This document shows positions 167 through 29,317 of a stretch of DNA of 64,000 nucleotides, piece after piece. Under the pieces are notes generated by a model. It saw only the letters and a program-made list of their open reading frames with translations, had not been told where the DNA came from and ran no database searches. The stretch spans positions 328 to 64,327 of the forward strand of contig WRGA01000119.1 of assembly GCA_009787405.1 (NCBI GenBank), in the 5' to 3' direction. A program made the position numbers and the translations under genes. How positions within the stretch are numbered: the first letter of the stretch is position 1; the number at the start of each line of letters is the position of its first letter. The stretch comes from Candidatus Azobacteroides sp. (GTDB lineage: Bacteria > Bacteroidota > Bacteroidia > Bacteroidales > WRGA01).

Positions 167-601
167 ATGATGAACGATATGAAAACAAGAGGTTTTAAAG
201 TCATTCTGATCGGATTATCAATCATCGCCGGATTCGGAGCGGCGGTGATGTTGCTGTGGAACGCTCTCGTTCCGGACATTTTCGGTTTGCCGACCGTCAA
301 CTTTTGGCAGGCGACGGGTCTGCTTGTCCTGATCCGCATTTTGTTCGGCGGCATCGGCGGAAGAAAAATGGCGGGAGGCGGAAGAATGCACGGCGGATTG
401 TTCGGCGGCATCGGAAAAAGGAATCCCATCCGGGAAAAATGGATGAAAATGACACCGGAAGAACGAAAAGAATTTATCCGGAAAAGACATGAATTTATGG
501 CCGGAGGCTATTTCGACCGGGAAGACTTTTTCGGACGTGGTCGTTTCGGACATGATCATCCGTTCGGAACAGATCATCCGGACGAAAAAGACGAAAACTG
601 A
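167..601 (+). CDS. small membrane protein with a Gly-rich segment (unknown function), co-transcribed with the ECF sigma
   Basis: It has an N-terminal TM segment (VILIGLSIIAGFGAAVMLLW) and a second hydrophobic segment, then GGIGGRKMAGGGRMHGGLFGGIG. Its stop lies 2 nt before the sigma-factor ATG. Confidence 0.6.
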   Translation: MMNDMKTRGFKVILIGLSIIAGFGAAVMLLWNALVPDIFGLPTVNFWQATGLLVLIRILFGGIGGRKMAGGGRMHGGLFGGIGKRNPIREKWMKMTPEERKEFIRKRHEFMAGGYFDREDFFGRGRFGHDHPFGTDHPDEKDEN

Positions 602-603
602 AC

Positions 604-1170
604 ATGTCCGGAACACAAAAAAACATCACGAATTTGATTGTCGAATATCAACCTCGTCTGAAGGCTTTTATCCGAAAACGTGTCTCAAATAAAGAAGATG
701 CGGATGATATTTTGCAAGAGGTTTTTTACCGGTTGGTAAAAGCCGACAATCTGATGAACCCGATCGAACAGGTTTCTGCATGGCTGTATCGCGTTGCACG
801 AAATTTGATCATCAACAACGGGATCAAGAAACACGAAGAAGAACTGTCGTATTTTCAACAAGGCGACGATAGTGATGAAATCATGAAAGATTTTTCCGAA
901 ATTTTGTTCGGCGGCAATGGGTATGAATCTTCTCCCGAAACAGAATATTTGCGTTCATTGGTATGGACGGAACTCGAAAATGCTCTTTCGGAACTGCCTG
1001 CCGAACAACGGGAAATCTTTGAAAAAACGGAATTGGAAGGAATTACGGTTAAAGAAATATCCAAAGAAACAGGGGTAGCGGTCAACACCTTGTTATCCCG
1101 AAAACATTATGCAATCCTGCATCTCCGGGAACGATTGGCAGAATTGTACGAAGAAATCATATCTGCGTAA
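604..1170 (+). CDS. ECF-type RNA polymerase sigma-70 family factor
   Basis: Region 2 reads DADDILQEVFYRL...AWLYRVARNLIIN. Region 4 reads LPAEQREIFEKTELEGITVKEISKETGVAVNTLLSRKHYAILHLRERL. Length is 188 aa. Confidence 0.9.
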   Translation: MSGTQKNITNLIVEYQPRLKAFIRKRVSNKEDADDILQEVFYRLVKADNLMNPIEQVSAWLYRVARNLIINNGIKKHEEELSYFQQGDDSDEIMKDFSEILFGGNGYESSPETEYLRSLVWTELENALSELPAEQREIFEKTELEGITVKEISKETGVAVNTLLSRKHYAILHLRERLAELYEEIISA

Positions 1171-1200: not shown

Positions 1201-1221
1201 CGGCAGGGAAATGTCCTGCCG
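1201..1221. terminator. hairpin between the convergent sigma gene and the 4-TM array (cggcagg-N7-cctgccg)
   Basis: A 7-bp perfect stem is visible. The same hairpin module recurs at 1741-1761 and 3147-3169, each time downstream of a 4-TM paralog. Confidence 0.4.
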
Positions 1222-1244
1222 GGACGATATAACCTGATTTTCAA

Positions 1245-1682
1245 TTATTTTTCTTTCTTTATCCGGGCAACTATCTTCTTTGAAAGAACATAAATGCAAT
1301 ACCAATACAACACAGTCCCCAGAAAATAAATTAAATTTCGAAAAATAATATTGTCAATTTGTAAATTGAATTGCGGCAAAAAAGGAATATTTACCGTCGA
1401 TAATCCTATAAAAAGAAGATCAAACGGTCTTTCTCCATGGGAAGAATGAATGGGTATCAATATTGCCGTGATTAAAAATAAAATGATTATCGATACGACT
1501 ATTCCCCATTTGATTGGTCTTATTTTAATCAAATTGATGCAAAAAGCAAGTACTGCCAATATAAAATACCATATACTTGCATCCTCCATTTTAATCTCTC
1601 TCGCGTATATCATACCGGAAATGATATAAACGACTAAAAGTATTGCAAAGAATATGATATGAGTTAATATTTTTTTAATCAT
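1245..1682 (-). CDS. 4-TM small membrane protein, paralog 4 (candidate immunity-like protein)
   Basis: I used the internal start MIKKILTHIIFF (cat at 1680-1682). It has four hydrophobic helices and the conserved tail LYWYCIYVLSKKIVARIKKEK. The tracked ORF extends upstream only because the stub has no stop. Confidence 0.7.
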   Translation of the reverse strand: MIKKILTHIIFFAILLVVYIISGMIYAREIKMEDASIWYFILAVLAFCINLIKIRPIKWGIVVSIIILFLITAILIPIHSSHGERPFDLLFIGLSTVNIPFLPQFNLQIDNIIFRNLIYFLGTVLYWYCIYVLSKKIVARIKKEK

Positions 1683-1740
1683 AGCAGTAATTATAAAATT
1701 TAAAGCGTTAAAAAAATGCATATCGTATCGGAAATCATTC
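1683..1740 (-). pseudogene. orphan 3' stub of the Cys-rich secreted-protein gene
   Basis: It reads ...RYDMHFFNALNFIITA directly before the MIKK start. Compare YDMHLYNALDFMNYYCQ* at the end of 3644..4669. Confidence 0.5.
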
Positions 1741-1784
1741 CGGCAAGACATTTTCCTGCCGAGACGATACAATCTGATTCTCAA

Positions 1785-2219
1785 TCATTTCTCTTTCTTT
1801 ATCCGGGCAACTATTTTCTTTGAAAGAACATAAATGCAATACCAATATAACACAGCTCCCCAAAAATAGATCAAGTACAACAATGTAACCCGGATAATAA
1901 TGCTGTCAATTTGTAAATTGAATTGCGGCAGAAAAGGAATATTTACCGTCGATAATCCTATAAAAAGGTCAAACGGAGTTTCCACAAAGGAATGATTTGG
2001 TATCACTGCCGTAATTAAAAATAAAATGATTATCAATACCACTATTCCCCATTTGACCTTTCTTTTTTTATACAGATTGACGCAAAAAACCAATGTTGTT
2101 AAAATAAAATAATATACAATTGCTCCCGATATTCCTCTTGAATATAATACACAGGAAGTGATATAAATAACCAAAAGTATTCCAAAGAATATAATATGAG
2201 TTAATATTTTCTTAATCAT
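1785..2219 (-). CDS. 4-TM small membrane protein, paralog 3
   Basis: I used the internal start MIKKILTHIIFF (cat at 2217-2219). The C-terminal tail is identical to paralog 4, and the 3' nucleotide sequence looks near-identical by eye. Confidence 0.7.
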   Translation of the reverse strand: MIKKILTHIIFFGILLVIYITSCVLYSRGISGAIVYYFILTTLVFCVNLYKKRKVKWGIVVLIIILFLITAVIPNHSFVETPFDLFIGLSTVNIPFLPQFNLQIDSIIIRVTLLYLIYFWGAVLYWYCIYVLSKKIVARIKKEK

Positions 2220-2435
2220 TGTAGTAATTATAAAATTTAAAGTATTAAACAGATGCATATCTTCCTTGTCATCATCATCACTTTTTTTCTCATCGCCGTC
2301 ACCGACATAAATCGGTAAATCACTGCTGTCGGTACCTTCAGGTGGCTGCGGGTCAAACGGATTGTTAATGTCCGAAATGTCCATCGCAATATGTCCGCCA
2401 CGGTAGGGATATCCTATTTGCCGGAATAGTTTCAA
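2220..2435 (-). pseudogene. orphan, diverged C-terminal fragment of the Cys-rich gene, fused in frame to paralog 3
   Basis: The 72 codons read ...YRGGHIAMDISDINNPFDPQPP...KEDMHLFNTLNFIITT. They align to ...KNGGHQALGLVKK..FNLFDPDT...YDMHLYNALDFMNYYCQ of 3644..4669. Confidence 0.5.
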
Positions 2436-2491
2436 GCTGTCCCGGCAAATATAGACTATCTAATGCTTGAAGCATTTATTCGTTGGAATTT

Positions 2492-2935
2492 TTATTTTTG
2501 CTCATGTACGGTAAAATTAGTGATTTTTTTTGACAAATAATATACCAAATACCAATATAATAAGGTTCCGATAAAATAACCAAAGTAATAGAGAATCAAC
2601 CTGATAATTGCAGTTCCAAAAGGAAAGTCTAACATTGGTAAAAAAGGAATATTCAACGATGATATTACCGTATAGCTTTTTGCAAGATAATGCCCTGTAC
2701 CATTAAATGCAAAAATTGTAATTACTAAAAAATTAATGCTTATTAATAATATTACCGTCCATTTAATACTTCTTTTTCCATATAGATTGACAAAAAAAAC
2801 AATTGATGTCACAACAAAATAATGAAAAACAATTCTTTTTAAATAAATTTCTCTTGAATATATTATATTAGAAATTATATAAACTATTATAAGTATTGAA
2901 AAAAATATAATATAGCTTACTATTTTCTTAATCAT
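2492..2935 (-). CDS. 4-TM small membrane protein, paralog 2 (most divergent, AT-rich)
   Basis: It begins MIKKIVSYIIFFSILIIVYII and ends ...LYWYLVYYLSKKITNFTVHEQK. Length and hydrophobic pattern match the other paralogs. Confidence 0.7.
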   Translation of the reverse strand: MIKKIVSYIIFFSILIIVYIISNIIYSREIYLKRIVFHYFVVTSIVFFVNLYGKRSIKWTVILLISINFLVITIFAFNGTGHYLAKSYTVISSLNIPFLPMLDFPFGTAIIRLILYYFGYFIGTLLYWYLVYYLSKKITNFTVHEQK

Positions 2936-3110
2936 TGCAGTATTTTTTATAAAATTTATAGCATTATACTAAGTGCATATCATACAAATAATTGTCAAGA
3001 AATCCAAAAACTTCACCACTCAAAGATTCTAAGATTTCTAATGCAAATTCAACAGAATATATAATATACTATTTTCTTTTACCAATCCCAACAAAAGGAA
3101 ATACATAAAC
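2936..3110 (-). pseudogene. orphan 3' stub of the Cys-rich gene with a premature stop
   Basis: The reverse strand reads EFALEILESLSGEVFGFLDNYLYDMHLV*. Compare EAALEYLESLGVEYFGYPDDYLYDMHLYNALDF in 3644..4669. Further upstream it shares the ttttaccaatcccaa block. Confidence 0.55.
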
Positions 3111-3191
3111 CTATTCAAAATTTAAAATCAATCGAAAATACCTCCCCCGGCAGGACATTTTCCTGCCGGGACGATACAACCCGATTCTCAA

Positions 3192-3647
3192 TCATTTCTC
3201 TTTCTTTATTTGGGCAACTATTTTCTTTGAAAGAACATAAATGCAATACCAATATAATATGGCACCCCAAAAATAAATCAGATACATGACAGTAAACCGG
3301 ATAATAAAAGTTTCAATGTTCATTAAGCATCGATGGAAATATAGAGGCAAAAAAGGCATAGTTACCGGCGAATCCTCTATAACTAAATCCAAAGGATTAT
3401 CTGCTATTCCTCCCATCGGGCCCAACCATATTGACAATGAAAAAAGAAACCAGATCAGTGCTGCGACTCCCCATTTGATTGGTCTGATTTTAATCAGAGT
3501 AATCAAAAAAACGATTATAACCAAAATAGAATATACTCCACTTGCATTATCAATTTCAATTGTTCTTGAATATATCAGACTGAAAATGATATAAATAACC
3601 AAAAGTATTATAAAGAATATAATAGGAGTTAATATTTTCTTAATCAT
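3192..3647 (-). CDS. 4-TM small membrane protein, paralog 1, translationally coupled to the Cys-rich protein
   Basis: Its start overlaps the stop of 3644..4669 (ATGA at 3644-3647). It begins MIKKILTPIIFF and ends ...LYWYCIYVLSKKIVAQIKKEK. Confidence 0.75.
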   Translation of the reverse strand: MIKKILTPIIFFIILLVIYIIFSLIYSRTIEIDNASGVYSILVIIVFLITLIKIRPIKWGVAALIWFLFSLSIWLGPMGGIADNPLDLVIEDSPVTMPFLPLYFHRCLMNIETFIIRFTVMYLIYFWGAILYWYCIYVLSKKIVAQIKKEK

Positions 3648-4669
3648 TGGCAGTAATAATTCATAAAATCTAAAGCATTATACAAATGCATATCGTACAA
3701 ATAATCGTCAGGATATCCGAAATATTCAACACCCAAAGATTCTAAGTATTCCAATGCAGCTTCTCTTTCATGTTTATAAGTGTCGGGATCAAACAGATTG
3801 AAACCTCCGTCTTTGTTTTTTTTTACCAATCCCAATGCTTGATGTCCACCGTTTTTTTCGGGATAATATTTCAGTTGTAATCCGGAATTTCCTAGTTCAG
3901 AGGAAACGTATGCAACATCGGAACCGGAACTGGAATTGCTTGCCGAAGCCCAACCAGCAATATACCTCTCAGGATGGAGTAATTGATTATATTTCGTGTA
4001 TAACGAACTATTTGTCGGATAATTAATCAAATCCGTCTTTAAATTATCGCGCGTGTATCCCAATTCATATAAAGCCGTCAGATTTGCCAAGCTGATAATA
4101 AACTGTTCCTGAGCGGGGGTAAAAATGTTACTCGAATTCCTCAGGTATTTAGTACTAACTGTTCCGTGATATATGTTGCAGATTCTTTTCTTATCCTTTT
4201 CGAGCGTACATGTACAAAAAGGGCAAGAAGAATCAGAATCAGAACTAATGCTTTTATACCCAAGACAAATAGGACATCGTTCTCCGGTGCAACTGGGATT
4301 CGGCTGTGGGTTCGGGTTCGTACCTGAGTTTGGGTTACCGCCACTACCACCGGTACCTTCGCCGCCGGTACCTCCAAAGCCATCATTACATATTCCGTAA
4401 CAAGAACAGTAGTCTCCGTAGCAAGGAGAGTCGTCACATATTCCATAACAGAAACAAAGATTATAACACGGTGGGTCGTAGTCATTATCATCCGGATATA
4501 CCACAATTTCGTCACATTCATAACCTGCACTGTTGCTTCCATAGCATCCCCATGGATCATCATTGCCGTCGTCTTCATTATTACCGTATGTATCAAATGA
4601 ATAAGCTGACAGGCACATGAATAAACCGCACAGTAAAAATACGTATTTTTTTATAATTCCCTTTTTCAT
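3644..4669 (-). CDS. secreted Cys-rich protein of unknown function (candidate toxin/bacteriocin-like effector)
   Basis: It has a signal peptide (MKKGIIKKYVFLLCGLFMCLSA) and a Cys-dense module (CYNLCFCYGICDDSPCYGDYCSCYGIC). A G/N/P-rich linker and a CPIC...CPFC pair follow, then an unassigned C-terminal domain of about 170 aa. Confidence 0.75.
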   Translation of the reverse strand: MKKGIIKKYVFLLCGLFMCLSAYSFDTYGNNEDDGNDDPWGCYGSNSAGYECDEIVVYPDDNDYDPPCYNLCFCYGICDDSPCYGDYCSCYGICNDGFGGTGGEGTGGSGGNPNSGTNPNPQPNPSCTGERCPICLGYKSISSDSDSSCPFCTCTLEKDKKRICNIYHGTVSTKYLRNSSNIFTPAQEQFIISLANLTALYELGYTRDNLKTDLINYPTNSSLYTKYNQLLHPERYIAGWASASNSSSGSDVAYVSSELGNSGLQLKYYPEKNGGHQALGLVKKNKDGGFNLFDPDTYKHEREAALEYLESLGVEYFGYPDDYLYDMHLYNALDFMNYYCQ

Positions 4670-4688: not shown

Positions 4689-6116
4689 TTATTTAACAAG
4701 TTTTACCGATTGGCTGACCGATTTACCCGCCAACTTCAGCGTGTAGTTTCCGGCAGGTATTCCTTCCGTCGGGATCTCATACAGGTGTTTTCCGCTTTCA
4801 AAGGTTTCTAATTTGCCGGTATAGATCTGCTTTCCCGTTACGTCATACATCACAAAACGAATATCCTGCGCCTCCTGCAACTCAAATTCCACATTAATCC
4901 GGTCATTAAACGGATTAGGATAAGCCGACAGGGATGCCGTCCGGATGTTTTCCGCAGCCGAAGGGGTATTGACCCGTTTCAACACCACATAACTCGGAGC
5001 AAGGTACTCTCTGGTTACATCGCAATAAAAACGTACATTCCCGCTCAGGTACTCCTCGCCGTCTTTAAATTCTCTCTTAAACCTTCCCGTACGCATTTCC
5101 ACAGGCCTTCGGTTTGCATACAACACGATGTTATCAAACTGCCATTCGTCCTTGTTCATGATTGCGGAAACAGCGACAGAAGCCGTATCCGACTCCGTCC
5201 ATACCCCTTCGATGTTTCCGTCGACAGATTGGAGGGATACCTGCAATTTGGTTTCGTCTTCGATTTCTTCGCCCGACCAATCGTAGGTAATGATTTTCCC
5301 TTCCCATACGCCTTCGATGCCGATGTCATTCACGGTATTGGCTATTGAGGTATATCTTGCCGGAATCAACGCATTGATCGGTTCTTCGGCAACCGAACGC
5401 AGGGTTGCCTTCGTCATTCCGAAGGTTTCGGAATGGTTACGGGCCATCAGGTCGATGACTCTGTTGTACCCTAAATCGGCAGCCTTTGCAAACCAGTATT
5501 TTCCTTGTTCTGTGTTCCGCTCTACGCTACGTCCTTTGAAATAACACAGTCCTAAGAAATACATACACATCTTGCTCCCTTTTTGCGCGCCTTGTTCAAA
5601 ATACCTGACCGCTTCCCGATAACTCTGCTTTACCCCCATACCTTTGTAATGCATGTAACCGAGTTGATAGTCAACATTATCGTAACCCGTTTCTTTTGCT
5701 TTTTCGAAACATTCCACGGCTTTTTCGAAGTCTTGTTCCACAAAGTGCCCGAACTTGTACATCAATCCTAAATTGTACCAAGCTTTGGCGTAACCCTGTT
5801 CCGCAGCCTTTGAAAAAAGGTTGAACGCTCTTTCGTCATTTTGTTTCATTCCCAACCCATACTTATACATCATTCCGATCGCATTGCTGGCTTCGGCATC
5901 GCCGTCGGCGGACAAATACCGGAATATTCTTGCCGCTGTTTTGTAGTCTTGAGTCATTTTATACCCGTTCAACATCCGATAAGCATCTCTGATCGCCTTG
6001 TCCCTTTGGGGCAGACTGCTTTTTGAGCCTTTTTGTGCCAATATAGTGCCTGACCCCGCACACAGGCACAGGAGAAGGATAAACGAAATCCTTCGTATGA
6101 TTTGTCGTATTTTCAT
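4689..6116 (-). CDS. Sel1-repeat (TPR-like) protein with a T9SS C-terminal sorting domain
   Basis: I used the internal start MKIRQIIRRISFILLLCLCAGSGTILAQ (signal peptide). It carries repeated Sel1 units (A.NAIGMMYKYGLG..., AWYNLGLMYKFGH..., YQLGYMHYKGMG...). The Por-type tail reads LSAYPNPFNDRINVEF...GNYTLKLAGKSVSQSVKLVK. Confidence 0.85.
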   Translation of the reverse strand: MKIRQIIRRISFILLLCLCAGSGTILAQKGSKSSLPQRDKAIRDAYRMLNGYKMTQDYKTAARIFRYLSADGDAEASNAIGMMYKYGLGMKQNDERAFNLFSKAAEQGYAKAWYNLGLMYKFGHFVEQDFEKAVECFEKAKETGYDNVDYQLGYMHYKGMGVKQSYREAVRYFEQGAQKGSKMCMYFLGLCYFKGRSVERNTEQGKYWFAKAADLGYNRVIDLMARNHSETFGMTKATLRSVAEEPINALIPARYTSIANTVNDIGIEGVWEGKIITYDWSGEEIEDETKLQVSLQSVDGNIEGVWTESDTASVAVSAIMNKDEWQFDNIVLYANRRPVEMRTGRFKREFKDGEEYLSGNVRFYCDVTREYLAPSYVVLKRVNTPSAAENIRTASLSAYPNPFNDRINVEFELQEAQDIRFVMYDVTGKQIYTGKLETFESGKHLYEIPTEGIPAGNYTLKLAGKSVSQSVKLVK

Positions 6117-6142
6117 TGTTCTGTTTTTTAGAAAGATTAATA

Positions 6143-6730
6143 TCACCATTTGTAACCACCTTGATAGACTACACCTTCCTGCTTTGCCTTTTGCAATGCG
6201 TTGGCCGATTTCAAACATTGAGGCTCGTATTTTTTCAATTGGGAAATGTTTTCCTTCAGTTTTTCATTGTTATACTTTTCGCGTACATAAACCACCTTTT
6301 CCAGCATATAATATTCGAATATTTGAACAGAAAATTGCTGTAAATCGGCTTCGCTGTATTTTCCGGATTCCCGGAGCGTATTCAGTTTTCCGGCTGTTTT
6401 ATCGGTAATTTCATCATGAGCACTCACGCGAATGTATTCCTCCATTTGCTTCCCCGAAAGCAAAGCTTGGAATTGTTTGTTGTAAGTCTCTTTTGCATCA
6501 CGAATCAAAGCGGAAGCCGAGATTTTATCATCAACCTTCAATAATATGGAGTCGATCGTCGCATAATAAATCCGGACAAGTTCGGCAAGTCGGGCTTCTT
6601 GTTCGCTGTCGATATCCACCATCTTTTTTACTTCGACGATACGCCGTGTAACATCATTCATTTGAGCTTGAACGGTATGACCGTAAAGGAACGTAAACAT
6701 ACATGCAAGTACATAACCAAGTTTTTTCAT
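6143..6730 (-). CDS. exported helical protein of unknown function, first gene of the minus-strand operon
   Basis: It has a signal peptide (MKKLGYVLACMFTFLYGHTVQAQ). The rest is charged and helix-like. The gap to the next gene is 26 nt. Confidence 0.6.
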   Translation of the reverse strand: MKKLGYVLACMFTFLYGHTVQAQMNDVTRRIVEVKKMVDIDSEQEARLAELVRIYYATIDSILLKVDDKISASALIRDAKETYNKQFQALLSGKQMEEYIRVSAHDEITDKTAGKLNTLRESGKYSEADLQQFSVQIFEYYMLEKVVYVREKYNNEKLKENISQLKKYEPQCLKSANALQKAKQEGVVYQGGYKW

Positions 6731-11241: not shown

Positions 11242-12942
11242 ATGAAAAGAAAAATTACCGGTTTAGTTTTATTATTAAATGTTGTAGTAGTTTTATTGCA
11301 GGCACAAACTACTCGTTATGTAAGCTCAGATGCAGATGCCGGAACGGGTAGTTTGCGTAATGTCATCAGCAGCGCCGGAGTGAATGATAGTATTGTCATC
11401 GAATCCACTGTTACCGAAATTATTTTGACAGCTCAAATTAAAATAACAAGTAAAGGTCTAAAGATCAACGGACAAGGAGCTACGGTGAGGGTACAGGATC
11501 CGAGTGTTTCGCCCTACCGGATATTCCAATTTGAAAGTAAAGATGGTTCAGTCCATTCGTATGCGTTGTATAATCTGACGTTGAAGGGAGGAAATACACA
11601 ATTAGCGACACTGGATGGTAATAATGGAGGGGCCGTTTCTATACCGAACGACAAGACAAATTTTATCATGAAAAATTGTGTTGTTTCCGATTGTAAAGGA
11701 ACAACCGGAGGAGCTTTGCATATGGCTAATCCTTCAGAGACCGGCGTTCTTTTGGAAAATTGTACTTTCAGAAACAATGAAGCGGTAGTTAATGCCGGCG
11801 GTAATTATGGAAATGCCGGTGTCGGGGTTTTCAGGGGAAATAACGGAATTACTTTTAAAAATTGTGTCTTTGAAAATAATACAGCTAAATATAATGCTAT
11901 AGCAACTTTTTCCGAGCCGGCAACTTTTTCCGGCTGTTATTTCAAATATAATTCGGTAATGGATAGTCCGAATACTGCTCAAGTTGCAGCATTGGTTTTA
12001 AGTCATACAAGTGGCATTACCATCATTGAAAATTGTACTTTTGAAGGCAATATACAAGATAATGCTATATCCGACAGTGACGGTAATGCCGTACTTTGTA
12101 CCAATAATTCGGCAACTTCTGCTTTAGTAACCAACTGTACCTTCTATAACAATACCGGCAAGCGGGCGGCAGTATATGGCAGAGACGGATTTTTGACCAT
12201 TGTTAATTCTACATTTGCAGGAAATATAGGGACGAATACTTCAAATAATAAACATGGGAGCGCTCTTTATATCAGAAATGCTACAGTTACATTGGTGAAC
12301 AATATTTTTGCGTATAATTATGATGCGAATGACGCTGATATTTTTGTGCAGAATAGCAATACAACCGGTTCTAACAATATTATTGCTAAAGCTCAATTTT
12401 CTTCGGGAACGATTAATTTGAACGGCCTTTCTTCTCCGGTTTCTTTTTCTTACGGAAGCGTTATTCCGGATAATGATGATGATCCTTTATTTGCAACATA
12501 TACCACAATCAACGGCAAAAAAACGCCTGAATTGGACGCTGATACCAAAACAATTCCTTTGGCGGCAGGTAGTACGGCAATTGGACAGGGTACAACAGTA
12601 TTTTCGCCTGTAACTATTCCAACCACAGATCAACGCGGTATAGCGCGCGACGCCTCTATTGATTTGGGGTCTTATGAATATGATGGTACTCTCACCGGAA
12701 TCCACACCACGCAAAAATCTTCTGAAACGATCATCTATAGATTCGATAATGATGCATTATATATTCAGGCAATTTCCGATGTTATCCGGCAAGTCGCTGT
12801 GTATAATCTACAAGGTCAATTGATCAGAAATGAGGCGGTCAATGCAGGTACCCACATGGTAACCGGTTTGACAAAAGGAATTTATGTGGTAAAAGTAATT
12901 ACCGGAAACGAAATTCAAAATCAAAAAATCATCATAAAATGA
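11242..12942 (+). CDS. T9SS-sorted beta-helix repeat protein (Pmp / choice-of-anchor-like repeats)
   Basis: It has a signal peptide and iterated units (NCVVSDCKG, NCTFRNNEA, NCVFENNTA, NCTFEGN, NCTFYNNTG, NSTFAGN). The Por-type tail reads ...VAVYNLQGQLI...GIYVVKVITGNEIQNQKIIIK. Confidence 0.7.
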   Translation: MKRKITGLVLLLNVVVVLLQAQTTRYVSSDADAGTGSLRNVISSAGVNDSIVIESTVTEIILTAQIKITSKGLKINGQGATVRVQDPSVSPYRIFQFESKDGSVHSYALYNLTLKGGNTQLATLDGNNGGAVSIPNDKTNFIMKNCVVSDCKGTTGGALHMANPSETGVLLENCTFRNNEAVVNAGGNYGNAGVGVFRGNNGITFKNCVFENNTAKYNAIATFSEPATFSGCYFKYNSVMDSPNTAQVAALVLSHTSGITIIENCTFEGNIQDNAISDSDGNAVLCTNNSATSALVTNCTFYNNTGKRAAVYGRDGFLTIVNSTFAGNIGTNTSNNKHGSALYIRNATVTLVNNIFAYNYDANDADIFVQNSNTTGSNNIIAKAQFSSGTINLNGLSSPVSFSYGSVIPDNDDDPLFATYTTINGKKTPELDADTKTIPLAAGSTAIGQGTTVFSPVTIPTTDQRGIARDASIDLGSYEYDGTLTGIHTTQKSSETIIYRFDNDALYIQAISDVIRQVAVYNLQGQLIRNEAVNAGTHMVTGLTKGIYVVKVITGNEIQNQKIIIK

Positions 12943-15249: not shown

Positions 15250-18200
15250 ATGAAAAAATATCTAATACCAATAGTCTTTGTTTTCCTCTTTTGCTTTCCT
15301 GTACTGTCGGTTGCACAGGGAGAAATCTCCGGGACTGTTACCGACACATCCGGAGAACCGGTTGTGGGCGCTACTGTAGCAGTTAAAGGAACCACTGTCG
15401 GAACTGTTACGGATATAAACGGAAAATTCAGCCTGAAAATGCCCGGAAATGCAGGCGTTCTGGTATTCTCTTATTTAGGACTGCAAACGCAAGAAGTTGC
15501 GGTGAAGGAAAACCGGACAGTCTATCATATCGTTATGGAGGATAACCAAGTTCTCATGGATGAAGTTGTTGTAATCGGTTATGGAACCGTAGCCAAAAAA
15601 GACCTGACCGGCGCGGTTTCGTCCATGAGAGGAAAAAGTATAACGTCTATTCCTATTACCAATACGGAAACTGCGCTGACCGGAAGAATGGCCGGTGTAA
15701 CGGTTACTACCTCCGATGGAGCGCCTGATGCCGAGGTACAAATCCGGGTGCGTGGCGGCGGCTCCATCACACAAGACAACAGTCCGTTGTTCATCGTTGA
15801 CGGCTTTCCGGTAGAACGAATCTCAGATATTGCTCCTTCCGACATCGAATCGATCGACGTACTGAAAGACGCTTCTGCCAGCGCCATATATGGAGCGCGT
15901 GGCGCTAACGGCGTGGTTATCGTAACGACCAAATCGGCCAAAGCAGGAAAAACAATCGTCAGCTACAATGTCTACGGGCAGTGGAAACAGATCACCAAGA
16001 AATATTCGGTATTGGATTCATACGAATTTGTGAAACTGCAATACGAATTAAACGACCTCAAATTTAATCATGTGATAGATGCTTTTATCGATACTTTCGG
16101 CGATCCGGAAGATTTCGACATCTACAAAAATATCCCCGGCAGGGACAGTCAGGAAGAAATGTACGGCAAAGACGTATACGGACAGTCGCATAATCTCAGC
16201 GTGAGCGGAGGAACCGAAAAAACCAAGTTCACTACCGGGTTAACTTATCTGAAGGAAGAGGGTATCCTGAGAAATTCTTCTTTTGAAAGATTGAATGCCA
16301 ATTTCAAACTGAACCACCAATTGTTCGAGACCTTGAAGCTTGATTTGTCGGTCTACTATTCCAATGCCACAACCATGGGGGCAGGAACATCGGCTAATAC
16401 ATCAACCGAAATACGCAATGCCGTCAGTTTTCGCCCCGTGACCGGTAAAGATAGCCGTAACGCAAACAATATACTTTTCAATCCTGATTTGTACGACGAT
16501 CTCGAAGGTCAAGGCGACCTGTTCGACCCGATTGTCTTAATCGATCAAGACTACAAGAAACAAAACCGCGAAGAAGTGAACGTCAATGCGGCAGTGACTT
16601 GGGATATCATCAAAAACCTGTCATTCAAGAGCGAATACGGCCTGTTGAAAAGTCACCGGGAAACCGACCGTTTTTATGGGCCCATTACCACGATGGCACG
16701 GACTGTCGGTTCCAACCTGCCGATCGCTAAAATCACCGAAGAGGAAAGGCCTCGCCGGCGAATGACTCATACGCTCAATTATAAATTAAAAAATTTTAAA
16801 AAGCAGCATGATATAAACGCATTGCTTGGCTTTGAAGTATTTTCACAAAGTCAATCCGAAAGAAATAATACGTCCCGCCTGTTTCCGGCCGATATTACTC
16901 CGGAAGACGCTTTCGCCCGGATGCAACTTGGGTCGCCGGAATATGTGGAAGTATTCAGCGAACCCGACTATCGGTTAGTTTCTTTTTTCGGACGCGCCAA
17001 CTATTCGTTTCGAGATAAATACCTCGTTTCTTTTACTGCCCGTGCCGATGGTTCGTCCAAATTTGCTCCGGGCAGAAGATGGAGCGTTTTCCCGTCCGGA
17101 GCTGTGGCGTGGCGCTTATCGCAGGAAAATTTCCTGAAAGAAACAGAACAAATAGACGACCTTAAATTGCGCCTCAGTTATGGAGAAGCAGGAAACGACC
17201 GTATCGACAACGATATGTGGAGAATCAATTACATCGGAACCATTGACAAACCGGTAGTGGGTATCGGCAATACGCCGAATCTGTATTACAAGAAAGCTTC
17301 TTCGGTGATGACCAATCCCGACTTACGGTGGGAAACCACCGTCACCCGAAACGCCGGATCGGATTTCTCTTTTTTCAAAAGCCGCCTTTCCGGAACGCTC
17401 GACTTCTACTATAATACCACCGTAGATTTACTGTTGCAGTCTATTGTTCCCGAACAGACCGGCTACAGTTATCAGCAACAAAACATTGGTCAAACGTCCA
17501 ATAGAGGTTTTGAGATAACGCTGAACGCACCGCTTATTCAGAAAAAAGATTTCACGCTTTCCGCCTCCTTCAATTTCGCCGTGAATCGTAACAGAGTCGG
17601 TAAGTTGAACGACGGAAACTCCTCTTTCTATCGAAGCGATTGGGCAGACGGTCTGCGTGAAACCGACGATTTCATCCTGAAAGTAGGCGAGCCGGTGGGA
17701 TTGATGTACGGCTACGTCACCGATGGATTTTATACCGTTGACGATTTTGTGATTAATACCGGAGGTAAATGGGAACTCAAACCCGGAGTACCTAATGCCA
17801 CGCAAATTACCAATCCGTATTGGATAGGCAATGAGGCTGCAGGGATGCCTACCGTAGGTACCTTGAAACTCAAAAAAACTACGTCTTACAATCCCGACGA
17901 CCCGGCTTCCTGCGTTGTCACTCCCGATGATCGGCAGGTAATCGGCAATGCTCAGCCCAAAAATACCGGAGGATTCAGTTTTACATCGACCTATAAAAAC
18001 ATCGACCTGTCACTCTATTTCAACTGGGTATACGGAAACGACATTTATAATGCCAACAAGATTCTATTTACTACCTTATGGAAGAAAAACTACTATAACA
18101 TGCTTGATATTGTCGATGCTGATAACCGTTTTGTTTATACTGATGATGCCGGAAAAAGAATCACCGATATGGAACAGTTACGCGAAATGAATAAAAACGC

Positions 18201-18507
18201 TGTCATATGGAATCCGAATATGAAAAATCCCGTATTCCATTCATGGGCAGTAGAGGATGGTTCTTTTCTCCGTTTGAATAATGTGATTGTGGGGTACTCT
18301 CTTCCCAAAAATTGGATTACGAAAGTACGTCTGTCACAATGCCGCTTTTATCTGAATGTCAACAATGTTTTTGTTTGGACGAAGTATACCGGATTTGATC
18401 CGGAAGTCAATACGCGCACGCAAACGCCGCTCACGCCGGGTGTGGATTATTCTTCCTATCCCAAGGCAAGGTCATTTACGTTGGGGGCAAATATTACTTT
18501 TGAATGA
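15250..18507 (+). CDS. susC: SusC/RagA-family TonB-dependent outer-membrane transporter
   Basis: It has a carboxypeptidase-regulatory-like N-domain (GTVTDTSGEPVVGATVAVKGTTVGTVTDINGKF), a TonB box (DEVVVIGYGT) and a plug plus barrel. Length is 1085 aa and it ends ...SFTLGANITFE. Confidence 0.93.
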   Translation: MKKYLIPIVFVFLFCFPVLSVAQGEISGTVTDTSGEPVVGATVAVKGTTVGTVTDINGKFSLKMPGNAGVLVFSYLGLQTQEVAVKENRTVYHIVMEDNQVLMDEVVVIGYGTVAKKDLTGAVSSMRGKSITSIPITNTETALTGRMAGVTVTTSDGAPDAEVQIRVRGGGSITQDNSPLFIVDGFPVERISDIAPSDIESIDVLKDASASAIYGARGANGVVIVTTKSAKAGKTIVSYNVYGQWKQITKKYSVLDSYEFVKLQYELNDLKFNHVIDAFIDTFGDPEDFDIYKNIPGRDSQEEMYGKDVYGQSHNLSVSGGTEKTKFTTGLTYLKEEGILRNSSFERLNANFKLNHQLFETLKLDLSVYYSNATTMGAGTSANTSTEIRNAVSFRPVTGKDSRNANNILFNPDLYDDLEGQGDLFDPIVLIDQDYKKQNREEVNVNAAVTWDIIKNLSFKSEYGLLKSHRETDRFYGPITTMARTVGSNLPIAKITEEERPRRRMTHTLNYKLKNFKKQHDINALLGFEVFSQSQSERNNTSRLFPADITPEDAFARMQLGSPEYVEVFSEPDYRLVSFFGRANYSFRDKYLVSFTARADGSSKFAPGRRWSVFPSGAVAWRLSQENFLKETEQIDDLKLRLSYGEAGNDRIDNDMWRINYIGTIDKPVVGIGNTPNLYYKKASSVMTNPDLRWETTVTRNAGSDFSFFKSRLSGTLDFYYNTTVDLLLQSIVPEQTGYSYQQQNIGQTSNRGFEITLNAPLIQKKDFTLSASFNFAVNRNRVGKLNDGNSSFYRSDWADGLRETDDFILKVGEPVGLMYGYVTDGFYTVDDFVINTGGKWELKPGVPNATQITNPYWIGNEAAGMPTVGTLKLKKTTSYNPDDPASCVVTPDDRQVIGNAQPKNTGGFSFTSTYKNIDLSLYFNWVYGNDIYNANKILFTTLWKKNYYNMLDIVDADNRFVYTDDAGKRITDMEQLREMNKNAVIWNPNMKNPVFHSWAVEDGSFLRLNNVIVGYSLPKNWITKVRLSQCRFYLNVNNVFVWTKYTGFDPEVNTRTQTPLTPGVDYSSYPKARSFTLGANITFE

Positions 18508-18526
18508 AAAATTAATAATTAAAATA

Positions 18527-20341
18527 ATGAAACAACTATATAAAATCAGTGCATTATTTATTAGTATGGTATGTTTATTTTGTGCTTGTGAAGATTTCCT
18601 GAATACAAATTCCAAATCACAACTCAACGAAACGACCATGTACAATACGGAAGGCGACATATACAGAGCTGTGTTGGGGATCTATTCCGCTATTATGGTG
18701 GATGGTGTATATGGATTAGACATTCCGTTTATTTTCTGTTATAGCAGCGATATTGAATACGGAGAATGTAACGCCGCCGTTGATAATTCCCGGAGAGGCA
18801 TTTGGGATTATTCGGTTTCGTCTGATAACGATGAAATCGGACGGGCTTGGGGTCCTATTTATTCTGCCGTTAATACAGCCAACGAGTGTATCGAAGGAAT
18901 AGAAAAAAGCGACTTGTTTGCCGAATCTTCTCCGGAAGTACCGTCTGTGGTACGGCAACTCTACGGAGAAGCTAAAGCCATGCGCGCCATGCTCTACCTT
19001 GACTTGGTTCGCAATTGGGGCGACGTACCTTTCCTGACTAAGGGAACCAAAGCCGGCGATGATTTCTATCAAGGGGTAACAAATCGCAACGAAATTCTCT
19101 CTTGGCTGATAAACGATCTGATAGATGCCGAACCGGCCATGTTTTATGCTTCCGAAATTTCACAGTCGATAGAACGATTTAACAGAGGCGCCGTACAAGG
19201 ATTCATTGCCCGAATGTCGCTGGCTCGCGGAGGTTATTCTCTCTACCCTGATTACAACAATCCGTCGGCACCGGGAGAAATGAAAAGACCGGACGACTAT
19301 TTGGAATACTACCGTATCGCCAATACTTATGCCCGAAAACTGCAAACATCGGGTAAACATGGTTTGCTTTCAAGTTTTGCCCAAGTGTTTGTCAATGAAT
19401 GTCAGGAAATTTATCCATCCGGTGATGATGTGCTGTTTGAAATTCCTTTTGCTACATCCTACAATGGCAATACAGGTGTTATTGTCGGACACCGGGTCAA
19501 TCAAAGCAAGAATAACCCCTACGGATGGTCGAGCGGATGGTATTATGCCACGATTACTTATCATGCATCCTTCGATTACAGCGATATACGTCGTGATGTT
19601 ACCTGCGCTCCCTATTCGTGGAGTTGGAATGCCGAAAAAGGCCGTATGGAACAAGTCTTTTCGGAATGGAGATCTATTTACATCGGTAAGTGGAACAGAT
19701 TGTGGATGAAAATACAACAAGGCCCTGACGCCCAATACAGCACAGGCATCAACTTCCCGGTAATCCGTTATGCCGACGTATTGTTGATGTTGGCGGAAAC
19801 GGAGAACGAATTGAACAACGGCCCGACCGACGATGCCCGTAATGCACTTAAGGAAGTACGTCTCCGTGCTTTCCCCGAAAACGTGCAGCATATAAAGGTA
19901 GAGAAATATGTGAACGACCTTGTCACTTACGGCGAGTTTTTTCATGCTGTTCAAAATGAACGCGCATGGGAATTCGGGGGCGAAGCCATCCGCAAATACG
20001 ACCTTATCCGCTGGAATCGCATGGGCAACATCCGGCAAATGAAAATAGACGTAAGCAACATGAGCGGTGATGCCGGTTACCCGAAATATGTGTATACGAA
20101 AACAAAAGATGATGGTACGCTCGATATTCTCAACTTCGATAACACCATGGCTGCTGCTCTGGCCGGATATACCCGCAGGGATTGGGCTGTCGGCACCGCT
20201 ACCGGTGGTTTTACCACTTACGATAAGAGTTTCAAGGACGAATATATTAACCCCGAACCGATGGTGTACATTTTTCCTTTATATAAAGATGTTATAACCG
20301 ACAGTCGCGGTGCATTGAAAAATTATTATGGAAAAAAATAA
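18527..20341 (+). CDS. susD: SusD/RagB-family nutrient-binding lipoprotein
   Basis: I chose the internal start MKQLYKISALFISMVCLFCAC (lipobox), 19 nt after susC. SusD-like blocks are present (RAMLYLDLVRNWGDVPF, FPVIRYADVLLMLAE, ERAWEFGGEAIRKYDLIRW). Confidence 0.9.
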   Translation: MKQLYKISALFISMVCLFCACEDFLNTNSKSQLNETTMYNTEGDIYRAVLGIYSAIMVDGVYGLDIPFIFCYSSDIEYGECNAAVDNSRRGIWDYSVSSDNDEIGRAWGPIYSAVNTANECIEGIEKSDLFAESSPEVPSVVRQLYGEAKAMRAMLYLDLVRNWGDVPFLTKGTKAGDDFYQGVTNRNEILSWLINDLIDAEPAMFYASEISQSIERFNRGAVQGFIARMSLARGGYSLYPDYNNPSAPGEMKRPDDYLEYYRIANTYARKLQTSGKHGLLSSFAQVFVNECQEIYPSGDDVLFEIPFATSYNGNTGVIVGHRVNQSKNNPYGWSSGWYYATITYHASFDYSDIRRDVTCAPYSWSWNAEKGRMEQVFSEWRSIYIGKWNRLWMKIQQGPDAQYSTGINFPVIRYADVLLMLAETENELNNGPTDDARNALKEVRLRAFPENVQHIKVEKYVNDLVTYGEFFHAVQNERAWEFGGEAIRKYDLIRWNRMGNIRQMKIDVSNMSGDAGYPKYVYTKTKDDGTLDILNFDNTMAAALAGYTRRDWAVGTATGGFTTYDKSFKDEYINPEPMVYIFPLYKDVITDSRGALKNYYGKK

Positions 20342-20344
20342 ACG

Positions 20345-22060
20345 ATGAAAACAAAGAAGTATTATGGTTACATATCACTGCTTGCAGGAATTATTTGCTT
20401 GTTTGCAGCAGCTTGTGAAGACAAGGATAACTACGATGAGCCGCGTCTTTTCAAACCGACCGGTTTGTCGGTCAGAGTGTCGTACAACAATGTTAGCGCT
20501 ACATGGAAAGCTACGGATGGAGCCGAAGGATATGAAATAGAAGCTTCGGTTTCTCAAACGTTTGAAACCGGCGATACAATAATTTATACCGATGGAAGTA
20601 CCTTGTCTGCGCAATTCACCGGATTGCAAGAAAACCGGCTTTACTATTTTCGGTTGCGCGGGATAATGAGCGACCCGCAATGCAATTCCAAATACATCTA
20701 TGCACAAATAACTACGCAAGCGGCTTTTTCTGTTTTCTATCCGGTTAATCAGGATTCCATATCTTATTCGGCAGCCATACTCAAATTGCGTGAAGAAGTT
20801 ATTGCCGACAGAATGGTTGTCATCAAAACATCCGGCGACGGAGGTTCCTTTGAGCAGGCGGTAAGCACGGTAGAGTTGAAAAACAAGCGTATCCGGATCG
20901 AGGGGTTGGAAGCCGGTGAATCCTACAAAGTTATTTTGTACAACGGCAGTGAATCGTATGGCTATACGGTATTTACGTTACCCTCTGTCCCGGAAAGAAT
21001 GATAATTATAGACGCCGGTAATAAAGAACAATTGCAAAGTTTACTTGACAATGCCGAAGAAGGTGCTGTTTTTATGTTTCGGGGAAATGTGTTTGATTAT
21101 TCGACAACAGACATCGTTCTCGGCAAAGCTGTTACGCTGATGGGAGAACCGGGCGTTCCCAAGCCCAAATTGTATGTGAAAAATCTGCTGATTGGCGGAA
21201 GAAATGCGGCGGCATCAATCATTGTCGGCAAAATATCGCTGCTCCGCATTGATTTTTCAGGTTACAAGCTGAACGGAAGTACAGAACAAACTTCGGCAGA
21301 ACCCAATCGTTACCTGCTCTCGTGCGATTTTACACAAACTCCCGACATTACTGTTCAACAGATAGATGTACAGGATTGTATGATCCGCAATTACAGTTAT
21401 AGTTTCTTGGAATTGAATGATAAATTGAAAGTAAACGCTGCCAATAAAGTTGTCATCGACGAGATAAATGTGATGCGGACCATTGCTTTCGACTTGGGAA
21501 GAAATAACAGCGGCTATTCTTCATTTATCAGTATTTGCAACAATGCGGCTAATAATGGGTACTGCAAACGGTACAATATTCAAAACAGCACGTTCCATCA
21601 TTTGTTGAGAGGCATGATAGAAGCGCGTATATTTGTTGCGGAACAGGCTGAAGCGAATGTCTTGGTTGAGTCTTGTACTTTTGATTATTCAGGAAAACAA
21701 GATCCTGCGTTAACGGGACGATGGTACGGAACAAACTCCGAGATGACCAAGCCTATATTTGACTTCAAAGCAACGGACGCCGTATCAGCAGTACAAATGA
21801 ATATCAATAACAGTATTTTCGGAGAATTATTTGCAGAGAAGTTAAGTAATGCTTTTTCGCAAGGAATTTCCTCCGTCAGTTTTGGCGGTAGTTTCATGTT
21901 GGCAGCTTCCAAACAGGCAATTACATCAGGAACATTACTGATAACCAACATCAACGCAACGATTAACGAACTATTTCCGAAACGGGCTGATTTTAATTAC
22001 ACAGTAGGAACGGCATTGCCCGAAACGGTTAAAAATGCGGGAGACCCCGGATGGAGATGA
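20345..22060 (+). CDS. surface lipoprotein, FN3 domain + beta-helix-like region (resembles DUF4957/DUF5123 proteins of pectin PULs)
   Basis: It has a lipobox (LFAAC) and an FN3-like segment (PTGLSVRVSYNNVSATWKATDGAEGYEIE...YYFRLRG). It directly follows susD. The family name is from memory and was not searched. Confidence 0.55.
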   Translation: MKTKKYYGYISLLAGIICLFAAACEDKDNYDEPRLFKPTGLSVRVSYNNVSATWKATDGAEGYEIEASVSQTFETGDTIIYTDGSTLSAQFTGLQENRLYYFRLRGIMSDPQCNSKYIYAQITTQAAFSVFYPVNQDSISYSAAILKLREEVIADRMVVIKTSGDGGSFEQAVSTVELKNKRIRIEGLEAGESYKVILYNGSESYGYTVFTLPSVPERMIIIDAGNKEQLQSLLDNAEEGAVFMFRGNVFDYSTTDIVLGKAVTLMGEPGVPKPKLYVKNLLIGGRNAAASIIVGKISLLRIDFSGYKLNGSTEQTSAEPNRYLLSCDFTQTPDITVQQIDVQDCMIRNYSYSFLELNDKLKVNAANKVVIDEINVMRTIAFDLGRNNSGYSSFISICNNAANNGYCKRYNIQNSTFHHLLRGMIEARIFVAEQAEANVLVESCTFDYSGKQDPALTGRWYGTNSEMTKPIFDFKATDAVSAVQMNINNSIFGELFAEKLSNAFSQGISSVSFGGSFMLAASKQAITSGTLLITNINATINELFPKRADFNYTVGTALPETVKNAGDPGWR

Positions 22061-25000: not shown

Positions 25001-25083
25001 ATAAGGGGTTGTTCCATGCTGTTTTCAGTCCTTATGATATTGTATTGCCCGAAAAACCATTTCTGAAAAGTTACGGGTTTTAA
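22051..25083 (+). CDS. glycoside hydrolase family 2 (beta-galactosidase-like)
   Basis: It has a signal peptide and a sugar-binding domain (NGHHVGYWASSFNMCQFDIT). The TIM barrel carries RTAHYPFHPRFLEICDELGLYV, WSVGNENP (acid/base) and LLTEYSH (nucleophile). Length is 1010 aa. Confidence 0.88.
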   Translation: MEMKKIKKAIIAGLCGLCASLALQAADIPRRAVYPVRDAMEIKSLNGVWKFRLVPEGKIPASETDFFRPEFNDGAWDHIRVPANWEMEGKKEPEYGGDIRDCLGLYRTTFRLNSAWQSKHVILRFDGVLFAYDVYVNGHHVGYWASSFNMCQFDITPFIYFDGPNVLAVKVSTRAKGYRFDLNDDWALSGIFRDVELFSVPDTHLKDVTFKSFLKDDHKAMISVDVSVDAFTGPPGELYVQAMLNDESGKTVCAFRNKMNREGEALTHFEGLIEQPTLWTAETPYLYRLEVYLTDVKNNVVQHITEKVGIREVSVKDGILLINNKPVHIRGVCMNEMHPTLGRAWTDEVRIHDLKMLKAANANFVRTAHYPFHPRFLEICDELGLYVCNEVPFGYGDMHLTDPAYQDELYKRAEATIARDKNHPSVIVWSVGNENPYTELVENTVQYVKEKDPTRPRVLPMVGTYFMENRERLSDNVSMYSFHYQSPEAVERIAKLNEKPILLTEYSHSLGLSFDALEAQYAMMKKYKNIAGGSVWDWADQAILKTRSKQEFLNDTLVQGVWKDSTQYYDSFNDRGSDGIVYANRYPQEDYRQVRKVYSPVVFTDSLIHAATGNQEIRLTIENRFDFISLCGYQCRWALKNFRQILSFGVIDLNTPAQSQSEVKLTVNVPDSVAYRDYVLVLTVYDKQMHAVCERSLPLLVNAEPLNYPVLLNREFAGKTWKVEKGKTIRAATDDLRFSLDHNGKIRLTGKGGKVYLDSELLIRVGRKPTINLLNLGMRRKDLFYWNPYLLPPEIVGKNVYQTKDTLHIALDCRWNRQEKQGEYIDGKINIAVSRNSVIHFDYSVKPQQATGSLLEFGLALCLPFDVTTFRWLGDGPFSSTPGKRALNEKDVWTLDKDDIRFTGNRANVDVALFTGDDNYAIGFAGNRSDLGVENIDGRIVISDNLVVVGYGTKLSQPINEQKADKIGEKRGAFCLTIVNTIQNKGLFHAVFSPYDIVLPEKPFLKSYGF

Positions 25084-25222
25084 GTATGGTGAAAAAATAG
25101 TTTATATTTTAAATGCCAAAGTCGCCAAGGCAGAAAGACACGAAGTTTAAAATCTTTGCGGCTTTGCATCTTCGCGTTTAAAATCATTTAAATTGAAAAT
25201 ACTGATAAAGAAAATACGAACA

Positions 25223-27478: not shown

Positions 27479-27555
27479 CACACCTTTAAGGGTTGTCTCT
27501 TGGGTATCTTTGACAAAATATATTTTAATTTATTCATTTTATAAACACAGTTATC

Positions 27556-29265: not shown

Positions 29266-29276
29266 TCATTTCATAT

Positions 29277-29315
29277 ACGCCAATGAAAATCCGGTGTTTT
29301 CATTGGCGTATTTTG
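29277..29315 (+). terminator. rho-independent-type terminator closing the PUL structural operon
   Basis: acgccaatgaaaa-tccggtg-ttttcattggcgt forms a 13-bp stem followed by attttg. Confidence 0.7.
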
Positions 29316-29317
29316 AT

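Follow-up and report, generated by a model that had tools for sequence, protein, structure and literature searches.

Layout of the locus

A 64 kb stretch of DNA (the window, by which we mean this whole stretch) from the metagenome-assembled genome (MAG) 'Candidatus Azobacteroides sp.', a Bacteroidales symbiont of the termite gut, carries on its minus strand an array that we read as a predicted toxin gene followed by four putative immunity genes. The array is headed by an open reading frame (ORF; 3644..4669, minus strand) for a 341-aa protein with a Sec signal, a Cys-rich module, a linker rich in Gly, Asn and Pro (G/N/P linker), a CxxC...CxxC pair and a C-terminal putative toxin domain. Its TGA stop shares bases with the ATG of a 151-aa ORF (imm1, the putative cognate immunity gene; 3192..3647, minus strand; overlap ATGA), whose product has four transmembrane (TM) helices. 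Three orphan paralogs of this 4-TM protein are encoded further along the same strand, namely imm2 (2492..2935; 147 aa), imm3 (1785..2219; 144 aa) and imm4 (1245..1682; 145 aa, with a 4-residue deletion in TM4). An earlier note on this DNA, which was made from the letters alone, had placed these ORFs and the ATGA overlap identically.

That note had the three further paralogs following imm1 head to tail; all three are present, but each is preceded by a degenerate 3' remnant of the toxin gene. Toxin remnant 2 (2937..3091, minus strand) corresponds approximately to toxin residues 279-340 (tblastn, E=2e-7), contains in-frame stops and lacks an 11-residue insertion found in the 341-aa protein. Its nucleotides 2937..3050 match the last 115 nt of the toxin gene (82% over 116 nt; blastn, E=5e-26), with an extra 20-nt match (95%) at 3072..3091 (LGLVKEN), and it translates to EFALEILESLSGEVFGFLDNYLYDMHLV* where the intact gene has EAALEYLESLGVEYFGYPDDYLYDMHLY. 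Toxin remnant 3 (2221..2435, minus strand) is fused in frame to imm3, and its last ~14 codons (2221-2261) alone match the toxin gene significantly (86% over 42 nt at 2221..2261; blastn, E=1e-8). Toxin remnant 4 (1688..1739, minus strand) comprises ~16 codons (...RYDMHFFNALNFI...; tblastn, E=5e-4) and matches with 88% identity over 41 nt (1688..1727; blastn, E=3e-9). Because each downstream paralog is preceded by such a decayed toxin 3' end, the array is best read, on these alignments, as one intact toxin-immunity pair followed by three cassettes that each combine a toxin remnant with an immunity gene.

The cassettes differ in composition and divergence. The protein encoded by imm2 is 39% identical to that of imm1, and imm2 is the most divergent and most AT-rich copy, with its cassette (2492-3114) forming the most AT-rich part of the array; since remnant 2 also lacks the 11-residue insertion, cassette 2 probably derives from a different toxin lineage. 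The imm3 and imm4 products are each 57% identical to that of imm1 and ~72% identical to one another, and cassettes 3 and 4 look like the outcome of a recent duplication. The GC content across the array (window positions 1500-4000) was 0.23-0.35, compared to 0.42-0.48 in the flanks, and this low GC, most pronounced in cassette 2, suggests a foreign origin. A GC-rich hairpin motif (CGGCAGG...CYTGCCG) occurs after imm1, imm3 and imm4 and nowhere else in the window: a GC-rich, terminator-like hairpin with a U-rich tail after imm1 (3145..3171, minus strand; -25.4 kcal/mol, z = -4.5), a weaker one after imm3 (1741..1761, minus strand; -16.8 kcal/mol), and one with a U-rich tail after imm4 (1201..1221, minus strand; -20.6 kcal/mol, z = -3.7), which lies between the array and the convergent gene of an extracytoplasmic function (ECF) sigma factor. 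A sigma-70 promoter scan of the locus gave matches at chance level only, a search for the Bacteroides-type -7 box gave a single plausible site, upstream of the remnant 3/imm3 cassette, and an Rfam scan of the window found nothing.

In the 341-aa protein, residues 1-22 (MKKGIIKKYVFLLCGLFMCLSA; 4604..4669, minus strand) form a signal peptide, assigned by eye from the single hydrophobic segment at residues 4-22, and a hydropathy scan found no hydrophobic segment outside it. The letters of the protein do not distinguish cleavage by signal peptidase I after A22 from lipidation at C19. Of the 18 Cys in the mature protein, 16 fall in an N-terminal region spanning residues 42-154 (4208..4546, minus strand), which contains an internal repeat, the G/N/P linker (residues 95-126) and a CPIC...CPFC pair; the signal, Cys-dense module, linker and Cys pairs that the earlier note had listed are thus all there. 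The repeat is a 16-codon direct repeat (4383-4456, minus strand; DNA identity 81%) of CxCYGIC[DN]D units. The region presumably serves in receptor binding or delivery. Cys-rich N-termini also occur in two homologs (P0010 and P0011), and a word-indexed search of 5.8 billion proteins found no relatives of the window protein's own. The C-terminal domain (residues 159-341; 3647..4195, minus strand) measures 183 aa including the lineage-specific 11-residue insertion; a domain had been expected here at about 170 aa, and its presence, not that size, was borne out.

The toxin gene product is MCL1943774.1 in GenBank, where it is labeled a hypothetical protein. In the GenBank record of this MAG, imm1 is shortened to 104 aa (MCL1943773.1), and toxin remnant 3 and imm3 are joined as one 199-aa ORF (MCL1943771.1); our analysis corrects these two mis-annotated genes.

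The C-terminal domain, its carriers and its membrane partner

Neither the toxin nor any of the four 4-TM paralogs matched Pfam or NCBIfam, even at E<=1, and a Pfam scan of 48 domain members gave scattered chance matches only. Alignments were made of the four paralogs (A1), the 4-TM family (A2), the domain in close homologs (A3) and the domain in 48 diverse sequences (A4); searches of PDB sequences with the profiles of A3, A4 and A2 returned nothing meaningful, the best match being a stretch of malaria MSP-1 (E=0.05). The view that neither partner belongs to a family that can be named therefore held in Pfam, NCBIfam and PDB. A literature search on the accession numbers found nothing, and likewise one on DUF6443, a family found in some of the relatives described below.

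The word-indexed search with the 341-aa protein gave 11 clusters; one is a 99%-identical strain variant, and in the others just the last 53-61% of the query finds a counterpart, preceded by unrelated N-termini. An exhaustive search of 1.84 billion representatives with the A3 profile returned 106 proteins at E<=1e-3 (29 at E<=1e-30); of the 80 near-complete matches, 79 have the end of the domain no more than 25 residues from the C-terminus. In 10/10 longer relatives tested, the domain is preceded by the RHS core (TIGR03696, Rhs_assc_core), in several together with RHS/YD repeats or DUF6443; in the 2019-aa protein P0053, for example, the RHS core occupies residues 1749-1827 and the domain residues 1869-2008. 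The toxic tip of RHS proteins sits in the region after this core (Zhang et al. 2012, PMC3482391). Extreme C-terminal position and recurrence downstream of the RHS core thus support the C-terminal domain as a predicted polymorphic-toxin payload.

Other carriers are either short signal-peptide proteins or Sec-signal proteins, many with a lipobox-like Cys, in which a globular scaffold and then a Gly-rich linker come ahead of the domain; the N-terminal scaffolds of these Sec-signal carriers are mutually unrelated. The 367-aa protein P0132 shares one such scaffold with P0009 (158 aa aligned, 55% identity); the similarity reaches as far as the Gly-rich linker, beyond which P0132 carries a Peptidase_M23 domain (E=4e-12). 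This pair is a clean cassette swap at the linker, and the scaffold with alternative tips is that of the homolog P0009, not the Cys-rich N-terminus of the window protein. The family is also very rare, with toxin loci found in 7 places among 185,579 species genomes, all of them Bacteroidia (A3 genome scan).

Several features of distant members were seen along the way. The neighborhood of one (L018) holds an array of RHS C-terminal orphan modules, and in another (L020) an Ntox23 module lies beside the RHS C-terminal fragment that bears the domain. In one branch of the superfamily (12/80 matches, among them P0046, P0087, P0091, P0096, P0113, P0114 and P0123), hydrophobic segments rich in Gly zippers lie between the RHS core and the domain, and these segments might serve as a membrane anchor for the domain or assist its passage across a membrane.

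Hydropathy and the positive-inside rule predict that the partner proteins cross the membrane four times, their N- and C-termini both being cytoplasmic (N-in and C-in); the earlier note had likewise called four TM segments. Loop 1 is short and acidic, loop 2 is basic with a KxRxxK motif, and loop 3 is acidic, ~34 residues long and bears an invariant N-[IV]-P-F-L-P motif. Pairing of toxin and 4-TM gene is kept in 8/8 other close loci with downstream DNA (Bacteroidia only), whose hosts include Labilibaculum, Prolixibacteraceae, Carboxylicivirga and Marinifilaceae in addition to metagenomic contigs, and an ORF of the 4-TM family overlaps or abuts the toxin ORF in L001, L002/L010, L003, L009, L011, L012, L013, L015 and L021. 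There are two copies of the 4-TM gene in L001, and in L015 the toxin is split and its 4-TM partner intact. A profile of 4-TM proteins retrieved just 14 clusters. Two loci carry a lone 4-TM gene beside an AsnC-type regulator (L022, 4001-4495; L023, 1379-1873), and a six-frame search of both found no match to the toxin domain, so that this gene is read as an orphan immunity gene, predicted from its family membership, in an unrelated genome.

Sequence variation within the partner family is unevenly distributed. Among the four paralogs of the window, cytoplasm-facing segments are 69-73% identical and periplasmic loops 13-33%, with 71% in the PFLP motif, which is the pattern expected if the periplasmic face sets specificity. 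Across seven cognate pairs, the partner diverges faster than the toxin domain (mean identity 35% vs 55%). Distant RHS-linked toxins are followed by multi-TM ORFs (154-179 aa) that resemble the 4-TM genes in size and layout, with four hydrophobic segments in three of them and three in L007 (hydropathy).

Predicted fold, proposed mechanism and rival explanations

We predicted the structure of the domain from the 48 diverse sequences of A4 with AlphaFold2 (predicted local distance difference test score, pLDDT, 87.1; predicted template modeling score, pTM, 0.83; pLDDT of the five models 83.5-87.1); an earlier run on 11 sequences was poor (pLDDT 56), and the 48-sequence run was used instead. The predicted fold consists of four N-terminal helices, a six-strand beta-meander and two long C-terminal helices, with confidence lowest in the 11-residue insertion, which only the window protein has. 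Foldseek searches with this model gave nothing significant in the PDB (best E=0.39, TM-score <0.2) or BFVD (best E=0.25), and the modeled fold is therefore provisionally regarded as one without a known relative in these two collections. The structure comparison that the earlier note had proposed thus yielded a confident model and no match to an adhesin or structural family.

Residues Y236, K267, Y269, H300 and N331 are invariant across the superfamily (A3 and A4), and D213, S246, S256, E303, E307, M327 and H328 are nearly so; they concentrate in an LKYYPxKxG strand and in HxxExxxE and YDMHxxN helices, and the window protein retains all of them. These residues are polar and catalytic-looking, and Y236, K267, Y269, H300, E303, E307, H328 and N331 make up a candidate catalytic set, which the model places on the beta-meander where it packs against the two C-terminal helices. 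The papain-like or amidase site that had been proposed from a GGH...D spacing did not survive this comparison: its His276 is Tyr, Ser or Asn in 8/10 aligned close homologs, its FDPD lies inside the insertion unique to the window protein, and no papain-like protein was matched by Foldseek. An enzyme of that type would moreover need a conserved Cys-His(-Asp) set, and C164 is lacking in RHS-linked relatives. The domain has a Cys at either end, C164 and C340; both are conserved in the close, Sec-exported subfamily only, and this pair suggests a disulfide that would lock an extracytoplasmic fold.

Overall, we consider an interbacterial toxin-immunity module of the polymorphic-toxin kind to be the likely identity of this locus. 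The earlier note had recognized the layout of a polymorphic-toxin or bacteriocin locus with extra immunity-like copies, and the recurrence of the domain at the C-terminus behind RHS cores, the 8/8 pairing, the P0009 scaffold swap and the toxin-gene remnants all bear this out. In the mechanism that we propose as part of this reading, the 341-aa protein would be exported by Sec and then released or displayed, with its Cys-rich N-terminal part aiding delivery. The C-terminal domain would act enzymatically on a membrane-associated target and damage it at the periplasmic face of a competitor's inner membrane. The imm1 product would sit N-in/C-in in the producer's inner membrane and neutralize the toxin via its two periplasmic loops, which vary around N-[IV]-P-F-L-P, and imm2-imm4 would be immunity genes kept after their own toxins decayed, protecting against related toxins from other strains. 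The periplasm is favored as the site of action because of Sec export, the membrane location and loop variation of the partner, the Peptidase_M23 domain on the P0009-type scaffold and the terminal Cys pair.

Small 4-TM inner-membrane proteins are the type of immunity used against pore-forming colicins, and a rival explanation makes the domain a membrane-depolarizing or pore-forming toxin (cf. pore-forming colicins and Tse5-CT) whose insertion the 4-TM protein blocks within the bilayer, as Cai/Cia proteins do. The immunity candidate is of just this type, helix 3 of the domain (QEQFIISLANLAAL) is hydrophobic, and Gly-zipper-rich segments stand just upstream of the domain in the RHS-linked branch mentioned above (12/80). 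We nevertheless find a pore-former improbable: the domain has no hydrophobic hairpin of TM length, its model is a compact alpha/beta fold and not an all-helical bundle, its invariant positions (Y, K, Y, H and N, plus E, E and H) are polar and catalytic-looking, and no colicin pore domain in the PDB was matched by Foldseek.

The same conserved residues are compatible with RNase-like chemistry, and the same upstream Gly-zipper segments could mediate translocation across a membrane in some relatives. The toxin might then target the cytoplasm, for instance as a metal-independent nuclease with a His/Lys/Tyr/Glu site, with the 4-TM protein blocking import through the inner membrane instead of inhibiting the enzyme. 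This is unlikely given that the P0009-type scaffold is found in another protein with Peptidase_M23, whose action is periplasmic, that the C164/C340 pair of the Sec-exported subfamily suggests a disulfide-locked extracytoplasmic fold, and that no nuclease fold or family was matched; moreover, a producer that exports the toxin by Sec needs no protection from import unless the toxin re-enters.

The genomic setting is that of an ordinary chromosome. A Sel1-repeat protein with a C-terminal sorting domain of the type IX secretion system (T9SS) is encoded on the same strand as the toxin (4689-6218, minus strand), its gene ending 19 nt upstream of the toxin start; it is not kept upstream of the homologs in L001 or L002, and a part for it in toxin release is conceivable. 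On the other side, the genes of a Gly/His-rich small membrane protein (167..601, plus strand) and, directly after it, the ECF sigma factor (604..1170, plus strand) converge with the array, and the two sides share the hairpin at 1201-1221. Beta-helix proteins (11242-12942) lie upstream of a polysaccharide utilization locus (PUL; 15250-33261, plus strand) that makes up the rest of the window and encodes a SusC-like TonB receptor, SusD, an fn3 protein, GH2, GH28 with a GDSL esterase, and a hybrid two-component regulator. Both the Sel1/T9SS gene and the PUL are in keeping with a Bacteroidales genome. A family scan covered 19 ORFs of the window, including six flanking the array and ten in the PUL, with the remaining ORFs outside the scan; among these 19 there was no match to a recombinase family and no type VI secretion system (T6SS). 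A tblastn search of plasmid and phage collections gave no match to the locus.

This setting beside a PUL and an ECF sigma factor, with no plasmid or phage match, would also fit a locus that has nothing to do with conflict, in which a surface or periplasmic enzyme works with a dedicated membrane partner (e.g., in envelope maintenance or signaling) and the paralogs are ordinary tandem duplicates; the toxicity of the domain is, after all, a prediction. Such a reading is highly improbable, however, as many relatives carry the domain as the C-terminal payload of an RHS protein, the family is extremely sparse and patchy (7 loci in 185,579 species genomes), decayed toxin remnants stand beside intact partners, the partner evolves fast within a low-GC island, and Ntox23 and RHS C-terminal orphan arrays neighbor distant members. 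Each of these three rival explanations is less supported than an interbacterial toxin-immunity module.

Several observations weigh against that module as we have described it. The toxicity of the domain and the protection by imm1 are predictions from sequence, and biochemical activity is not readable from the structure because the model, confident as it is, has no PDB or BFVD match. The window protein lacks RHS, PAAR and a T9SS C-terminal domain and has no T6SS nearby, which leaves its export past the periplasm and its entry into a target unexplained. Terminator-like hairpins after imm1 put transcription of the orphan genes in doubt. Comparison by hhalign and hmmsearch detected no homology between the 4-TM family and the partners of RHS-linked toxins, and the co-variation of toxin-domain and partner identities across the seven cognate pairs (r=0.81, Mantel p=6e-4) has linkage and shared phylogeny as confounders and is supportive only. 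In the cross-genome comparison proposed earlier, two near-identical strain variants share the layout, and no copy-number polymorphism was seen within the species.

A bolder form of the proposal, which we put forward tentatively and hold to be possible but doubtful, is that the domain is a new enzymatic toxin fold attacking, from the periplasm, an envelope component that is either lipid-linked or embedded in the membrane, and that it is countered by a dedicated family of 4-TM immunity proteins. The Sec/lipobox forms would reach their targets independently of T6SS, RHS or T9SS signals, for instance on the cell surface or on vesicles, and the Cys-rich module would bind a receptor. If true, this would amount to an unrecognized bacteriocin-like class of weapon in Bacteroidia.

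Comparison with known systems

Systems of this kind are already known, and it is the toxin domain and the 4-TM immunity family that appear to be undescribed in the libraries and literature searched. Integral-membrane immunity is uncommon among the described polymorphic-toxin immunity families. If confirmed, a toxin fold without a solved relative and a membrane-embedded immunity family would join the catalogue of interbacterial weapons, and membrane-embedded immunity suggests that the target is located at the inner membrane, a site for which new targets of antibacterials are of practical interest. As the domain occurs both as an RHS payload and in simple proteins with a Sec signal or lipobox, the family would also allow delivery routes to be compared for one and the same warhead. 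The window would moreover be a clear case of toxin decay with immunity retained in a termite-gut Bacteroidales symbiont, which suggests ongoing strain-level conflict in the termite-gut community.

Many structures of ADP-ribosyltransferases (ARTs) have been solved, and an ART-type fold was set aside when the fold search of the PDB gave no significant match. The colicin pore domain is an all-helical bundle with a buried hydrophobic hairpin of ~40 residues, and a domain of this type was rejected for the window protein, which has no hydrophobic segment beyond its signal peptide, an alpha/beta model and no PDB match. Immunity to pore-forming colicins (Cai/Cia type) does resemble the window in that small inner-membrane proteins with 3-4 TM helices are encoded beside a secreted bacteriocin; there is no sequence similarity, however, and the toxin of the window is modeled as a polar alpha/beta domain whose invariant residues are of catalytic type. 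Colicin M, a lipid II phosphatase, has the motif DxYDx5HR; the window sequence DDYLYDMHLYN lacks its spacing and its Arg, no colicin M stands among the Foldseek matches listed, and a colicin M-like identity was rejected.

Clusters of acquired interbacterial defense (AID) genes are located on mobile elements. In gut Bacteroidales they are orphan immunity arrays, presumed to shield against other strains' toxins, and are described as neutralizing T6SS effectors (bioRxiv 10.1101/471110; PMC12247911). The window array resembles them as an array of orphan immunity genes in Bacteroidales and differs in that an intact toxin-immunity pair of its own family stands at its head, that neither a recombinase nor a T6SS was matched nearby and that it encodes 4-TM membrane proteins. 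We did not class it as an AID cluster, as a live toxin heads the array, none of the 19 scanned ORFs is a recombinase and neither plasmids nor phages matched.

Closest in organization are the polymorphic toxins (sensu Zhang/Aravind 2012), with which the family shares an extreme C-terminal domain on differing N-terminal carriers, one scaffold with alternative C-terminal domains (P0009 vs P0132) and a 4-TM gene directly downstream that co-varies with the toxin. Modules of the Rhs/contact-dependent inhibition (CDI) type likewise have a C-terminal tip on varied carriers including RHS, an immunity gene immediately downstream and tandem orphan cassettes made of a toxin fragment and an immunity gene (Zhang et al. 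2012, PMC3482391). The window departs from those modules in three ways: a Sec signal and a Cys-rich module are all that its protein has in place of an RHS, PAAR, filamentous or other known trafficking domain; the window remnants hold the extreme 3' end of the toxin gene and not a 5' recombination handle; and the toxin and immunity families fall outside the Pfam Tox, Ntox and Imm models. An identity of the window protein itself as an Rhs toxin was rejected, given no Pfam or NCBIfam match and RHS only in distant relatives.

Delivery without a dedicated secretion domain has parallels in two other groups. In SitA lipoprotein polymorphic toxins of myxobacteria (PMC5562445), a lipoprotein signal takes the place of a secretion-system domain and an immunity gene lies downstream; they differ from the window in belonging to another phylum, in needing TraA-mediated outer-membrane exchange for delivery and in showing no sequence relation in the family scans. 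The lipocone superfamily (Min-Wnt, CapCone and TelC toxins; PMC12419801) has a core of four helices forming a cone, with conserved polar residues in H2 to H4. The window model has a six-strand beta-meander between its helices. The Pfam scan of the 48 domain members gave no match to Wnt, SAA, VanZ or TelC-type families, and the locus accessions do not appear in the supplements of the lipocone study (PMC12419801). In architecture, the systems of Bacteroidota described there, with lipobox, Cystatin-like domain, linker and toxin, and the Min-Wnt toxins, some of them with 4-TM immunity, are alike in signal or lipobox, unstructured linker, C-terminal toxin and two-gene operon, as well as in membrane-located immunity and predicted periplasmic or intramembrane action (PMC12419801).

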